Assembly (NCBI GenBank): GCA_013166835.1
Contig: JABLTI010000043.1
Coordinates: 1-23,103 of the forward strand
Direction: 5' to 3'
Length of the DNA stretch: 23,103 nt
Origin: Promethearchaeati archaeon
Lineage (GTDB): Archaea; Asgardarchaeota; Heimdallarchaeia; JABLTI01
Numbering within the stretch: position 1 is the first letter of the stretch; every line of letters begins with the position of its first letter. Positions 1,486 to 13,930 of this stretch are shown here, piece after piece. The notes beneath the pieces were generated by a model. It made no database searches. It was given only the letters and a program-made list of their open reading frames with translations, and was not told where the DNA came from. The position numbers and the translations under genes are program-made.

Positions 1486-2298
1486 ATGTTTAGTGGACCA
1501 CTTCGTTGGGCTTCTAGTGAAGGAGTGTTTCTTTTTCAAGTTCCTGATGATGAGCACTTGCTCTCAACAGAAATAGTAATTTTGCTTTCAAGCAGTTTAT
1601 ATGCCATTCAGATATTCTTCAACAAAGGCCAAATCAAGTTCAACAACGAAGATCTTAATATTATCAAATTAAGTTTCCATCCACCATACACAACACAAGA
1701 GGATGAAGATGAGAAAAAAGGATACGTCATCCATAGTGCATTTAAAGATGGTATATGTGTTCAAAGCATTTTTCTCGCAGATCAAGCAACAAATCAGCTA
1801 AGTGAATTTGAATCAGCTTTTCTAGATTCCGTTGTAAATAATTTGTTAGAAACCCTTGTAAAAGAGGGTCGCAGTGTTTCCGACATTCCCTTTCTTAAGG
1901 ATAGAAGGGTTATTGATGAAATCGAGGAAATGCTTCACGAGATAGATACCAAGTATCAATCACTAGCTGCGAGTTGGTCATTAGCAGTAGGTCCTGATGC
2001 GGAAACAACTCGATTTGATTTTCCTCATGTTCTATATAACGGTAAAATTAGAGTTGAAGAATTATTTTATGATCTCGGGGATCGAGCAATTGAATCTTTC
2101 AGTCAGCTTCTTATGAGTAATGAAGAAAAAAATGTTCTTTACAAAATCGCTAAGAGTTTGGTGAATCTTTCCGGATTATTATATGAAAACCAAAAAACTG
2201 ATTCAATAAAAGAAGACAAGTTAAATTTCAGTCACTCTGAGATAATTCTAGAATCAACAATCACAAAGAGATTATTCAGACTAGATGTTCGATCTTAA
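1486..2298 (+). CDS. Hypothetical protein, probable longin-like domain(s)
   Basis: 270 aa, SD GAGGT upstream. The hydrophobic pattern of the first ~160 aa reads beta-beta-alpha-beta-beta-beta-alpha-alpha (SEGVFLF; LLSSSLYAIQIFF helix). The ORF is real; the fold is inferred. Confidence 0.5.
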   Translation: MFSGPLRWASSEGVFLFQVPDDEHLLSTEIVILLSSSLYAIQIFFNKGQIKFNNEDLNIIKLSFHPPYTTQEDEDEKKGYVIHSAFKDGICVQSIFLADQATNQLSEFESAFLDSVVNNLLETLVKEGRSVSDIPFLKDRRVIDEIEEMLHEIDTKYQSLAASWSLAVGPDAETTRFDFPHVLYNGKIRVEELFYDLGDRAIESFSQLLMSNEEKNVLYKIAKSLVNLSGLLYENQKTDSIKEDKLNFSHSEIILESTITKRLFRLDVRS

Positions 2299-5934: not shown

Positions 5935-6098
5935 TGTTTTGTAAATTGGAATAATACTTTTCTCTCATTTCTAAAATCAACAATTAATCTTATTAAAGCA
6001 TGAACTATTTTCTTGACAAAAGAACTTTTAACCTAAAACTTTCGTACTTTAATTAACAATGAAAGTATTAGACTCTCATCTATATTGGTGTGTTACTC

Positions 6099-7337
6099 AT
6101 GGGTAAGCCTAGCAAAAAAGAAACAAATGAACCAGATTTACAGGATTTAGGGGGATTAATTCGAGCAAGCAACATTTTCCTTTCTCAAGCTTCAAGAACA
6201 AGAAAGGCATTTCTTAATCAAAGTGAAGAACTAGTAAAATTATACAATCTTTTAATTGAAACCAAAAAGAAAAGAAATGTTGTTCATGTAACTGGTATGG
6301 GAAGAAGTGGAAGAGCTGTTGAGTTTTTTGCTGAAATGCTAAAGGATTTAGGATTTCATGTATCTGTTATAAGTAGAACTTTAGCTTTACCCGTTTCAGC
6401 TAATGATGTTGTAATTGCTTTTTCAGGCTCTGGGAAAACCATTACTACTGTGGCAAATGTAGGCGTTTGTGTTGATGGTGGAGCAAATGTTGTCATTGTT
6501 ACTCAAAATGAAAAATCCCGTTTGGGTCGTCTTGCAGATATTTGTTTAGTAGTACCCAAATCTAAGAAGCTTCAACGTGAAGAAGAACATCTTGAAATAG
6601 AAACAGACAAAGGTTTTGTCCTTTCATTAAGTCAAATTTCAGAAGAAATGAAGGGCTCATTATCACCAATGGGTACTTTGTTCGAATTATCTGCATTACT
6701 TGTTTCAATTGGATTGACAGGTATGCTACGCAATGATGAAAAACCTGAGAGAGCTTTCCAAAGCACTTTGGACACAGTAATAGATAACGCAGAGAAAGCT
6801 GCACAACAAATTGTGAAAAATAAGAAAACACAAGATGAAATTGTAAGAGTTCTTGATTTATTCTTAGATCTTAGTCCCGCTTCATCTAAGAAAGTTTTCT
6901 GGATCGGCGCTGGTTTAAGTGGTATCATCGCATCGATGCATGCTATGAGATTTCAGCATCTTGGTTACAACATACACCTCCAAGATGATTGGCGTTTTAG
7001 AAAGAAAAACGATATAATTGTTGCTATTAGCGGTAGTGGAAGCACACCATTTACAAATGGTTTCATAATTGAAGCCAAAAAGAAGAAAATGCTTACAGTT
7101 GGTTTCACATCTATTATTGACTCTGAATTTGGTTCTAACATAGAATTTTTGGTCAAAGTTCCAGGACGATTGGATCCTGATAGCTGGTATAATCGAATGT
7201 CTGAATCCAAACCATTCATTGAAACACAATTTGAATTTGCTGTTGCGATTGTTATTGAAAGCATAATAGCTCAACTTGCAGTTCATAAAGGAATTACAGA
7301 ATCTGAAATGAAAGGTCGACATGCAAATATCGAGTAA
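6099..7337 (+). CDS. Tandem SIS-domain protein; internally duplicated 6-phospho-3-hexuloisomerase (PHI/HxlB)-like
   Basis: Two SIS units: GMGRSG / SGSGKT / PMGTLFE and GAGLSG / SGSGST / ETQFE, ending in the PHI-type tail MKGRHANIE. ATG at 6099 follows GGTG at 6087-6090 and is preferred over GTG at 6090. Confidence 0.85.
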   Translation: MGKPSKKETNEPDLQDLGGLIRASNIFLSQASRTRKAFLNQSEELVKLYNLLIETKKKRNVVHVTGMGRSGRAVEFFAEMLKDLGFHVSVISRTLALPVSANDVVIAFSGSGKTITTVANVGVCVDGGANVVIVTQNEKSRLGRLADICLVVPKSKKLQREEEHLEIETDKGFVLSLSQISEEMKGSLSPMGTLFELSALLVSIGLTGMLRNDEKPERAFQSTLDTVIDNAEKAAQQIVKNKKTQDEIVRVLDLFLDLSPASSKKVFWIGAGLSGIIASMHAMRFQHLGYNIHLQDDWRFRKKNDIIVAISGSGSTPFTNGFIIEAKKKKMLTVGFTSIIDSEFGSNIEFLVKVPGRLDPDSWYNRMSESKPFIETQFEFAVAIVIESIIAQLAVHKGITESEMKGRHANIE

Positions 7338-7405: not shown

Positions 7406-7804
7406 ATGCCCCCTGATCGTGAATTAGATAGTCTTCGTGAAAAACGAAAAAAAGAACTACTTGCACAAAACATAAAGAAAGAACTTGCTCAAAAGAAACA
7501 AGAAGAAGAAACTAACCAATTGAAGCAAAGACAAGTTAGAGCAACTGAAATCGTTAACAAAGCACTGGAACCAGAAGCTGTTGTTTATATGAATTGGCTA
7601 ACTAAATCAAATCCTGCTATTGCTTTGACAATTAAAGATACAATAATTTTACTCATTCAAAAGAAGATGCTACGAAAGCAATTATCCAAAATCGATATTT
7701 TGAAAATAGAAAGAGAATTAACTGGTGTTGATTCAAAGATTCAGGTAAAACGAAGAGGGCAAGAAATAACAGATTTAGATGAAAATTTGAAATCAAAGAA
7801 ATAA
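7406..7804 (+). CDS. PDCD5/TFAR19-family (dsDNA-binding) protein, divergent
   Basis: D-x-E-L-x-x-L-R-x-K-R-x-x-E-L start, Q/E-rich helix, L-E-P-E-A, P-x-x-A...I-x-L-x-Q and the basic K-I-x-V-K-R-R strand. Confidence 0.75.
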   Translation: MPPDRELDSLREKRKKELLAQNIKKELAQKKQEEETNQLKQRQVRATEIVNKALEPEAVVYMNWLTKSNPAIALTIKDTIILLIQKKMLRKQLSKIDILKIERELTGVDSKIQVKRRGQEITDLDENLKSKK

Positions 7805-7823
7805 AAATCCATCATAAATTATG

Positions 7824-8780
7824 TTAGCTTTTCATGACACTTCCATAAATTATTCTTTCAATTTCCTTAATTATTCCTTTTATTGTGGGTGTTGCTGTTC
7901 CTACGCCATCTTGAGATTCAGCTTCAAAAATGAATAAGCCAATATATGCTAATTGTCTTTTCATACTTCGATTTCTAATAGCTTCTATCCATACTAAATG
8001 TGGTTGTGCATTAACCCATCCGTATTCATTTCTTTCTTCTAGGGCTAAGCTAATTTTCCAAAATATTGATGGTAAAGTGTTGTGAATGTTTGTTAACGTT
8101 TCTTTAGCAATATCATCTACTATAAAATTGTAGATACCCTCTCCTCGTTTATTATACATAGCAAAACCTGTACAAGATGGAAAAACTGTGGTAAATTGTT
8201 CAAGTATTTTTTTAATTTCAGCTTTTTGTTCTTCAATAATTTCAAGTTCTTCAGAAGGAAACTTTATTGTATCGTGTATTTTTTGAACCGATTCATCAAC
8301 AAGAACTTTTAATTTCTTGTCCTGTTCCAATCTATCTAATTGTCCCAAATAATGAGAAATTTCTGTGTCTAAAGCATCAATAGATACTTTTCCGTCTCTT
8401 TGTTCAACTTTTTCTTTGACAACAAAAAGCTCCATTGCAAACAAAACTAAATCCCCAGCATCCGCAAGATTAATCTTTAATGCTTTTGCAATTATTGATG
8501 AATTTGCTTCAGCAATTTCTTGAATTGTCATATAACCGAGATCTGTTAATGCTTTATTGATTCCCTCTGGATTATCCCCTTGGAATTGTTCTTGAATGTT
8601 CTTCATATGAGCTTTAAGTGCTGTAACAAATAGGCTTTCAGCAGTTGAAATACTTGAATCCAAGATATTCATAATGGTTGGTGGGAGAATTTCCACTAGT
8701 TCTGGTATAGTATTATAACCTGCATCACGTAATCTTTCTAAATAGATTTTTTTTAATTCAGCATCCTTTTCCTTTGACAT
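7824..8780 (-). CDS. Hypothetical protein: two RadA-N-terminal-like HhH modules plus C-terminal roadblock/LC7-like domain
   Basis: Repeats LRDAGYNTIPEL (aa 17-28) and LTDLGYMTIQEI (aa 78-89). C-terminal IKKILEQF...P...GFAMYNKRG...VG...IKGIIKEIERII matches the roadblock helix-strand-strand...helix pattern. Confidence 0.6.
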   Translation of the reverse strand: MSKEKDAELKKIYLERLRDAGYNTIPELVEILPPTIMNILDSSISTAESLFVTALKAHMKNIQEQFQGDNPEGINKALTDLGYMTIQEIAEANSSIIAKALKINLADAGDLVLFAMELFVVKEKVEQRDGKVSIDALDTEISHYLGQLDRLEQDKKLKVLVDESVQKIHDTIKFPSEELEIIEEQKAEIKKILEQFTTVFPSCTGFAMYNKRGEGIYNFIVDDIAKETLTNIHNTLPSIFWKISLALEERNEYGWVNAQPHLVWIEAIRNRSMKRQLAYIGLFIFEAESQDGVGTATPTIKGIIKEIERIIYGSVMKS

Positions 8781-9034: not shown

Positions 9035-9805
9035 ATGGATTTTTATACTGACAATTTTTCAAGTATCAACGCCCCTCCGGCAGTAGAAATTAACATTCGA
9101 CCTAATATACTTTATACCGATGAATACTCCTACTTAACAAAAGATGAATTAGAAGTTTTATTTCTATTAGCAACTACAGATATGTTTACTGAAGGCTTAT
9201 CTTCTTTTTCATTTTCTGGCATAAAACGTCAACTTGGAAAACATCAACAAAAAATAACTAAAGCTGTAAATAGACTTCTTTCTAAGAATTTGATTTGCAA
9301 AAATAGTATTGGATATTCCATTTCTTCCAAAGGAACTGCTGTTCTCTCAGAGGTAATTAAGGTACAAAATGCAGTTGATTTGCATCAATCTACAGATGAT
9401 TTCTTACAACAAAGAATTGTCTTCAATGAAAACCTACCTCTTAATGAAATAACTAATTTATTAGTGGGTAAATGGTTTGGATCATTTCGTTATATCTCCC
9501 ATACCGATGGAAAAGATTTGATTGTTCGTTGGCAATTAGTTGACAGTCGTGCTTCTGCAACACTACATGTTTTTGATGACGAAGCAATCTTAAGCATTAT
9601 ACCAGATAAACACGATTCCCAGAAATTCTCGTATGAACAAGCGCTAGATGATCTTTCAAGGTACTTTTTTGAAATTCTCTCTTCATTAGGTGTTAATGCT
9701 GTAATTGAATACGAAGGGTGGAGGAGAAGTTCGCTTTCTGAAATAGATTTCCAACAAAGATTCTCAGCCTGGTTGAGTAGTCATAATAATTTGGTTGAAA
9801 ATTAG
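9035..9805 (+). CDS. Winged helix-turn-helix protein with C-terminal alpha/beta domain (putative regulator)
   Basis: FSFSGIKRQLGKHQQKITKAVNRLLSKNLI...GYSISSKG is a wHTH pattern; the second domain carries L-x-G-K-W-F-G-x-x-R. SD AGGT upstream. Confidence 0.7.
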   Translation: MDFYTDNFSSINAPPAVEINIRPNILYTDEYSYLTKDELEVLFLLATTDMFTEGLSSFSFSGIKRQLGKHQQKITKAVNRLLSKNLICKNSIGYSISSKGTAVLSEVIKVQNAVDLHQSTDDFLQQRIVFNENLPLNEITNLLVGKWFGSFRYISHTDGKDLIVRWQLVDSRASATLHVFDDEAILSIIPDKHDSQKFSYEQALDDLSRYFFEILSSLGVNAVIEYEGWRRSSLSEIDFQQRFSAWLSSHNNLVEN

Positions 9806-13156: not shown

Positions 13157-13846
13157 TTACTCGTCATCCTTATCGACTGAAACAATAACTGTGTTAAGAA
13201 CGTCATCTAATAATGGTCGATCCTCTGGTTCAAGAGGTGGCCCATTAATTATTTTTGCTTCTGTTATTTTGGGTGGTTCCCCTAAATCTCTTGCTCCTCT
13301 TCTAGCGGGAGCAGCAGTAGCTACTCTAGATTGTGAAATTGCTCGAGTTAATTTAGATTCGAGTTGATCGATTCTTTTTATTAATTGTAAGACTTCTTCT
13401 TTACTCATTTCAGCTGTTTTTTGTCCTGTGCTTTGTTCACCTTTCGGAATAATTTTACTAAACTTCATTCCTAATTCTTCGATTTTCTGAATTATTTTTT
13501 CATTAGCTTCTTCAGACAATTGATGAACGATTTGAGCATTAGACCCGGATTCAACAGGAGGTTGTGGTCGAAATTGTTCTTTGACTTCTACAAAGTATTC
13601 CCACAATTCATTCAGTTTTGTAGTTGCAGTGTCATCTGACCCTGAGAATGTTTCCGAATAAGTGGGAGGTGGGGTTTTCGCAGAAATTAATCCAAAGTGT
13701 TTCTCATGAAGAGCAGCGATAGATTTTGATAGAATGTCAGAAGTTGAAGGATAACGAGTTAGTAAATCCTCGATTTGATCTTTGGTCTCAGAATTATACT
13801 CATACTCGAGATAAAATTTCAATTCTCTTGTTCTTCGACCACTCAT
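13157..13846 (-). CDS. Hypothetical protein: N-terminal ribbon-helix-helix-like motif, coiled-coil segments, Pro-rich linkers, acidic tail
   Basis: ATG 13846 with GGAG upstream. LKFYL strand, then ETKDQIEDLLTRY and PSTSDILSKSIAAL helices; heptad VLQLIKRIDQLESKL; ends VDKDDE. Confidence 0.5.
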   Translation of the reverse strand: MSGRRTRELKFYLEYEYNSETKDQIEDLLTRYPSTSDILSKSIAALHEKHFGLISAKTPPPTYSETFSGSDDTATTKLNELWEYFVEVKEQFRPQPPVESGSNAQIVHQLSEEANEKIIQKIEELGMKFSKIIPKGEQSTGQKTAEMSKEEVLQLIKRIDQLESKLTRAISQSRVATAAPARRGARDLGEPPKITEAKIINGPPLEPEDRPLLDDVLNTVIVSVDKDDE

Positions 13847-13930
13847 CAATACAATGCTCCAGTTTGTAGTTTACCTGCAATTAGACAATAAATTCTATTT
13901 CTACATAAGTATTTTACGATTTAAAATCAA

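Follow-up and report, generated by a model that had tools for sequence, protein, structure and literature searches.

The question raised by this locus is what a protein that joins two HhH modules to a roadblock domain might do in an Asgard archaeon. Roadblock proteins and small GTPases number in the dozens in Asgard archaea, and their pairings and cellular jobs are mostly unassigned. A protein such as P0001, which is present in a single copy and in every sampled genome of its family, is a tractable handle on this problem, in that the partners of each of its ends would place one roadblock circuit. P0001 is encoded in the 23,103-nucleotide stretch of Heimdallarchaeia DNA analysed here (the window). 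A first-pass annotation, made from the sequence alone, described it as an unusual fusion of two RadA/Rad51-N-like HhH modules, a charged helical linker and a roadblock-like domain, and proposed that it is an adaptor linking nucleic-acid or protein recognition to roadblock/GTPase signalling. The features of the gene are as follows, the domain names being those that profile comparison and structure prediction suggest.

8780-7824, minus strand: open reading frame P0001, 318 aa, HhH-HhH-helix-roadblock, without a P-loop
8607..8756, minus strand: HhH module 1, aa 9-58, RadA-N/HHH_5 type
8421..8573, minus strand: HhH module 2, aa 70-120, acidic, mean net charge -4.6
8241..8414, minus strand: acidic helical linker, aa 123-180, predicted long helix with invariant residues
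7845..8234, minus strand: predicted roadblock domain, aa 183-312, complete form with both terminal helices
8016..8060, minus strand: invariant patch W241, K242, I243, L245, Y253, G254 and W255 (36/36)

The gene and its range

P0001 is a genuine, conserved gene; its minus-strand reading frame is unbroken over 318 aa and the plus frame is full of stops. A word-based search finds 44 relatives at 47-93% identity, and a full HMMER search (1.84 billion representatives) finds seven, of which the most divergent full-length protein is 39% identical. Thirty-five of the 44 were aligned with P0001 (alignment A1, 36 sequences), with nine near-duplicates or fragments excluded. The gene is under purifying selection: five pairs have dN/dS values of 0.05-0.18, and a sixth, close pair has 0.36. 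With identities of 39-97% the family is a shallow one, and part of the residue invariance described below thus reflects kinship. Where named, the homologues are mostly labelled Heimdallarchaeota or Asgard, and one cluster member is labelled Gerdarchaeota; three have other labels (Zixibacteria, Thorarchaeota and Bathyarchaeia), which we read as putative misassigned bins.

Among 400 Asgard genomes searched with the A1 profile, all 12 of the window's family (Gerdarchaeales-type) have a strong match, which in one genome is only partial, at the end of a contig. No full-length P0001 is present in the 388 genomes outside this family, many of which are incomplete, and weak matches in ten of them (E 4.5e-6 to 7.4e-4) are mainly to the HhH modules. 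A profile of the C-terminal domain alone has two weak matches outside the family in the same 400 genomes, at E 6.7e-4 (with internal stops) and 0.003. Judged from these searches, P0001 is confined to one family of Heimdall-type Asgard archaea. The window's genome has a single copy by A1 profile search and no paralogue of the C-terminal domain. Six shorter forms are all on contigs of 0.8-1.5 kb and are likely to be fragments, and there are no longer fused forms among 6092 candidates, which is weak evidence. One RNA run (share 0.13) has contigs over the neighbouring genes and none over the P0001 reading frame, and is uninformative. A sigma-70 promoter scan gave fewer sites than shuffled sequences, the sigma-70 model being unsuited to archaea.

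P0001 is flanked on one side by a convergent PDCD5-like gene and on the other by a divergent winged-helix gene, the latter followed by proteasome beta and alpha genes. The PDCD5-like neighbour is present at 10 of 10 genome loci and 6 of 6 metagenome loci, and the winged-helix and proteasome genes at 9 of 10 and 4 of 6, respectively, with the remainder cut by contig ends. The whole region is syntenic within the family, so the synteny of P0001 reflects vertical inheritance and not an operon. Outside the family, neither the winged-helix gene (18 loci) nor the PDCD5-like gene (19 loci) has a P0001 module match within ~1.5 kb.

Neither Pfam nor NCBIfam gave us a family that covers the protein as a whole, P0001 alone having no Pfam match at E≤0.1, and we found no paper on an HhH/HHH_5 plus roadblock architecture in Asgard archaea in a full-text literature search that has most subscription journals outside it. 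Parts 106-108 of the 158 parts of supplementary file 3 of PMC12962969 have no row recognisable as P0001; these rows carry identifiers only, and the family may therefore sit in such catalogues unnamed. The architecture is real, restricted to one family and apparently undescribed. The first pass overstated its novelty, since domain shuffling of this kind is known and GTPases combining HhH, Rag and roadblock domains are widespread (see below). Passages of an earlier survey list 130 roadblock-superfamily asCOGs in Asgard archaea and describe roadblock and longin multidomain architectures there as often lineage-restricted and shuffled (10.1101/2020.10.19.343400); both parts of P0001 are modules that Asgard archaea shuffle freely.

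The C-terminal and N-terminal domains

The C-terminal domain is not reached by the Pfam roadblock model. P0001 has no Robl_LC7 (PF03259) match and its locus is outside the ten such matches (seven above cut-off) of the window's genome, and Robl_LC7 is absent among 25 of the 44 Pfam families listed for the 36 members. The assignment comes from structure. In an AlphaFold2 model of P0001 (mean pLDDT 71.9; mostly 72-90 over aa 181-310), aa 183-312 have the topology helix-strand-strand-helix-strand-strand-strand-helix, with a helix at 183-199, strands at 203-210 and 215-220, a helix at 223-249, three further strands and a helix at 287-312. The strings quoted in the first-pass annotation are in the reading frame, and the model gives the order of elements that it had proposed. 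The central helix is 27 residues long and uninterrupted between strands 2 and 3. The complete roadblock topology, including both terminal helices, is defined in passages of PMC10933270, which also note that in profilin half of the roadblock central helix is replaced.

Foldseek searches with the C-terminal domain place MglB or Asgard roadblock chains in all of the best ten rows (E 3.5e-4 to 8.3e-4). A VIA-align structure ranking over 48,161 chains has only roadblock-type chains in its seven best rows, with the roadblock tail of the Rag-like Asgard GTPase LokiRagO (8yl2) as the top match (Z 13.1, rmsd 2.4, 116 aligned) and LokiRagM (9m28/8zla; Z 12.5), MglB (12.3 and 12.2) and Roadblock3 (11.8-12.1) close to it; these rows are tied among themselves, and their lead over GAF is ~1-2 Z units. 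The first 21 rows of a second VIA ranking are roadblock, Rag or Ragulator chains and one Mon1-Ccz1. ESM Atlas scores are all below 0.9 (Robl_LC7 cluster 0.81, MAPKK1_Int cluster 0.80) and count as leads at most. The model thus shows a full roadblock fold, and we regard this anatomy as highly probable; the first-pass roadblock call holds by fold, the rankings not favouring the PAS or GAF fold that would have overturned it. That the domain is instead a minimal GAF- or profilin-like sensor is quite improbable. GAF reaches Z 11.0 (rmsd 2.9-3.3, 123-127 aligned) and profilin 10.2-10.3, and the missing Robl_LC7 matches would fit such a sensor; however, the best rows of both searches are roadblock-type, and the uninterrupted central helix together with both terminal helices corresponds to the roadblock definition in the passages of PMC10933270 cited above.

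One of the closest comparisons is with MglB and Asgard roadblock homodimers (3t1r, 6hjm, 9jue, 7f8m; PMC3199381, PMC10933270), with which the model shares Z scores of 11.8-12.3 (rmsd 2.6-2.7), a five-stranded sheet with the central helix on one face and the N- and C-terminal helices on the other, and a peak of conservation on the dimer elements. The invariant patch is in the C-terminal half of helix 2 and in strand 3; passages of PMC10933270 give these as the roadblock dimerisation elements, and passages of PMC3199381 describe MglB as dimerising through them and binding MglA on its two-helix side. Unlike these proteins, P0001 has a 180-residue N-terminal part, no Robl_LC7 match, only 10-17% identity, and no GTPase beside its gene. 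Further invariant residues of the domain are C203, H261, W264, E266 and R269.

P0001 has no catalytic or nucleotide-binding domain. No P-loop is visible in the sequence, as the first-pass annotation noted for Walker A, and the locus is outside the 17 G-domain matches (Gtr1_RagA, PF04670) of the window's genome.

The linker was described in the first pass as charged and helical. It is indeed acidic, the net charge averaging -5.9 in 36 homologues, and it is not a mere spacer, because six residues (E140, H143, R150, I168, I172 and P175) are invariant in 36/36; model confidence is low here (pLDDT 35-43 over aa 123-169).

The two N-terminal repeats (L-x-D-x-G-Y-x-T-I-x-E-[LI]) are present as first annotated, centred on G21 and G82 with a spacing of 61 aa. 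They align over 40 residues with a score of 49, compared with a mean of 21.7 (sd 4.1) for shuffled sequences, none of 1000 of which equals it, and a profile-profile comparison of repeat 1 with repeat 2 gives 86% probability. HHH_5 (PF14520) matches 16 of 36 family members at E≤1 (best 8.4e-6), and a homologue at 39% identity, P0047, exceeds the HHH_5 cut-off (36 bits vs 27) with two stretches. When 4 family members were compared with NCBIfam, all had RadA models as their best matches, in each case at the N-terminal region and only at profile positions 7-83 of 311-316. Each module matches a profile of Heimdall RadA-paralogue N-termini (28 sequences) at 92-95% (hhalign; shuffled-column maximum 7.7%). 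Matches to HhH modules appended to other Asgard proteins are at 96-98%, but that set was chosen with the P0001-family profile and the comparison is circular, so that it shows only that the module is promiscuous. These profile comparisons show the repeats to be predicted RadA-N-type HhH modules (HHH_5) with degenerate hairpins. The first-pass name "RadA/Rad51-N-like" is thus sound for the type of module and not for its donor, as generic appended HhH modules match at least as well.

The departures from RadA are in the hairpins. A Gly-hydrophobic pattern is expected in both hairpins of the RadA/Rad51 N-terminal (HhH)2 in passages of PMC1964548. In P0001 the first GhG hairpin is missing, being replaced in module 1 by a continuous helix, and the first-hairpin Gly (in the register of the GVG of the genome's RadA) is found in 0/33 sequences for module 1 and 0/36 for module 2. 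The second-hairpin Gly is present in 16/34 for module 1, with Ser/Ala next, and in 0/36 for module 2. The same passages give K27, G52 and K60 as DNA-binding positions of Sso RadA, the basic residues K27 and K60 being needed for dsDNA binding. Mapped by spacing, these positions fall -5, +20 and +28 residues from the central Gly; at the three places the RadA of the window's genome has K, E and K. Module 1, which is near neutral in charge, has R/K at the K27 position in 33/33, Gly at G52 in 16/34 and K/R at K60 in 21/35; P0001 itself has R, D and S, and K10 is invariant in 33/33. Module 2 has K at K27 in 1/36 (K/R one position earlier in 35/36), Gly at G52 in 0/36, and at K60 D/E in 36/36 and K/R in 0/36. 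Since the basic positions are partly kept in module 1 and acidic or lost in module 2, module 1 could bind DNA, and module 2 is unlikely to do so. P0001 also differs from RadA/Rad51 in having no RecA core.

Structure adds little for this region. The N-terminal model (pLDDT 74) has no Foldseek match at E≤0.001 and a best VIA Z of 5.4, with no HhH chain among the best 50 VIA rows; an HhH fold stays compatible. PDB sequence searches gave nothing significant, the best relevant match being the N-terminus of RAD51C (E 0.093). The weak rows are led by NusA (top in Foldseek, E 0.45-0.82 over 101-116 columns; non-significant), RAD51 and RadA. The NusA AR1-AR2 domains resemble the P0001 pair in being tandem modules of the same type, at least one of them acidic, with the weak rows running over both repeats, and passages of PMC4937328 describe the AR domains as binding proteins. 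Unlike NusA, P0001 has no other NusA domain, and its module 1 is near neutral.

We also note two other occurrences of such modules. A RadA paralogue in the window's genome (G000:C77:50881-51873; L059) has an N-terminal domain that likewise has degenerate GhG hairpins, and orthologue-like matches across the class. Unrelated Asgard proteins carry up to four appended copies of the P0001-type HhH module (L025, L027, L030, L033, L026, L029, L032; G000:C58:9020-12382), and we take ribosomal protein L32e, topoisomerase VI subunits and membrane proteins to be among these carriers.

Origin and possible roles

GTPases with an N-terminal HhH, a Rag-like G domain and a roadblock tail (HhH-Rag) were confirmed in other Asgard genomes, and the best PDB sequence match of one of them is LokiRagO. 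With two HhH-Rag proteins as queries (E≤1e-15) and counting only matches that cover the N-terminus, they are found in 29/31, 11/22 and 2/2 genomes of three families of the class (loci L196, L201, L265-L311). There is no match in the window's family (0/12 genomes), and in three other families (1, 3 and 12 genomes) the queries match the G domain only. The 17 PF04670 matches of the window's genome are all missed by profiles of the HhH-Rag heads, and for five relatives, among 30 of 52 PF04670 matches fetched, no HhH head is present in the reading frames caught by a P-loop pattern, with five loci uncaught. P0001 resembles these GTPases in its N-terminal HhH, and differs in having two modules rather than one and no G domain.

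A simple explanation, that P0001 is an HhH-Rag GTPase that lost its G domain, is unsupported: its modules match HhH-Rag heads at a profile-profile probability of 0.1-27%, and its C-terminal domain matches their tails at 0.2-2.8% (hhalign). The best match to the tails of ~300-aa Rags is 17%, over 29 columns and in register. Given this failure of profile kinship, the pairing of HhH and roadblock seems to have arisen more than once, with the proviso that deep divergence could hide kinship. Such repeated joining, seen in P0001 and, it seems by an independent route, in the HhH-Rag GTPases, is a hint of a recurring link. If instead the HhH pair is just one more appended module of a single lineage, P0001 is a catalogue entry, a roadblock family missed by Pfam.

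Our preferred reading, to which we give a probability of about 0.45, is that P0001 is a lineage-specific, non-enzymatic adaptor that dimerises via its roadblock domain and docks via its HhH pair. The domain would dimerise through the invariant helix-2/strand-3 patch with itself, with a stand-alone roadblock or with the tail of a Rag-like GTPase, and dimerisation of this kind is likely. It would put P0001 into the roadblock/small-GTPase network of the cell; the odds that its partners are small GTPases or other roadblocks are about even, and the GTPase link itself is one we only infer. The long helix would hold the HhH pair apart from the dimer, leaving it to dock on a macromolecular target, mainly by protein binding as in NusA AR1-AR2, as the acidic module 2 suggests, with module 1 possibly adding a weak non-specific nucleic-acid contact. 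The structural ranking with roadblock and MglB chains, the invariant residues on the MglB dimer elements, the acidity of module 2 with all three RadA DNA-binding positions lost, and the (non-significant) NusA rows are consistent with such an adaptor, and the seven Robl_LC7 proteins above cut-off and 17 Gtr1_RagA matches of the genome are candidate partners. Against it, the 23-kb window has no GTPase or stand-alone roadblock gene, the neighbours of P0001 being housekeeping genes; the C-terminal profile has no sequence link above random controls to the ten GTPase and eight roadblock reading frames compared from the same genome; the family is shallow; structure searches give nothing significant for the N-terminal fold; and the partial retention of K27, K60 and G52 in module 1 fits DNA binding equally. 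Roadblock domains are common in prokaryotes, as a passage of PMC12962969 states, and the fold alone shows no function.

A role in DNA or RNA binding is the alternative that this retention favours. The HhH pair would grip nucleic acid non-specifically, in association with chromatin, repair or RNA, and the roadblock domain would only dimerise or sense a small ligand, as does the sensor of a one-component regulator. The basic residues of module 1 at K27 and mostly at K60, together with the invariant K10, point this way, as do the GAF and IclR sensor domains at Z 10.8-11.0 (IclR 10.8) and the invariant C203, H261, W264, E266 and R269, which could line a pocket. A PDCD5-like DNA-binding protein and a winged-helix protein are encoded nearby, which also fits; however, these genes are unlinked to P0001 outside the window's family. 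Both modules are also without the first GhG hairpin, module 2 has an acidic residue at K60 throughout, P0001 itself has Asp at G52 and Ser at K60, and the whole protein has a pI of 5.0, and on balance we consider this alternative doubtful. Competition with RadA or its paralogue, in which the tandem modules would mimic RadA N-termini and take their partners or cap the filament, is very improbable. In its favour, RadA models lead the NCBIfam matches, and the RadA-paralogue N-terminal profile ranks P0001 third in the genome (E 0.014), behind the paralogue and RadA. But the appended HhH modules match equally or better (in a set selected with the P0001-family profile), F-x-x-A, the polymerisation motif, is absent after either module in A1, and no recombination gene adjoins P0001.

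The distribution of the HhH-Rag GTPases suggests a further alternative, in which P0001 is a G-domain-less descendant or stand-in that pairs with the Rag-like GTPases still present in the family and acts as their constitutive or inhibitory subunit. The domain order is identical apart from the G domain, the tails of LokiRagO and LokiRagM are the best structural matches, and the window's family is without HhH-Rag while three others have it. The profile probabilities to heads and tails are nevertheless far below the 92-98% seen with RadA-type and appended HhH modules, and the three families with neither protein make the pattern not strictly complementary; we regard this alternative as improbable. 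A broader version, which is unlikely, would have P0001 replace the HhH-Rag-roadblock GTPase of its relatives, pair with a Rag- or MglA-like GTPase and tether this switch through the HhH pair to the recombination machinery, the ribosome or DNA. If true, eukaryote-like small-GTPase signalling would be coupled directly and physically to a machine that processes information, and this in an archaeon closely related to eukaryotes.

Other genes of the window

Several other genes deserve mention. Next to P0001, the PDCD5-like DNA-binding protein (7406-7804, plus strand) is under the family cut-offs, and in a sister family its counterpart presumably adjoins ubiquitin-like and E1-like genes. Upstream of it, 6090-7337 (plus strand) encodes a tandem-SIS protein with best matches to 6-phospho-3-hexuloisomerase models. 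The winged-helix-type protein (9035-9805, plus strand) is unannotated and has relatives in 92 of 400 Asgard genomes; its gene adjoins the proteasome beta/alpha pair in the window and also, in the opposite orientation, at L109 and L115, and it is near small-GTPase-like reading frames at L114, L117, L119 and L123.

Two more unannotated proteins are conserved in the window's family. One is a 270-aa orphan (1486-2298, plus strand) with no Pfam or NCBIfam match, the N-terminal half of which appears longin-like by eye in its strand and helix pattern. The other is a 230-aa protein (13157-13849, minus strand), to which reading frames in a sister family are weakly similar (E 1e-3 to 1e-4); these are also found near the PDCD5-like gene, and at L140 and L154 they immediately precede a Rab-like GTPase reading frame.
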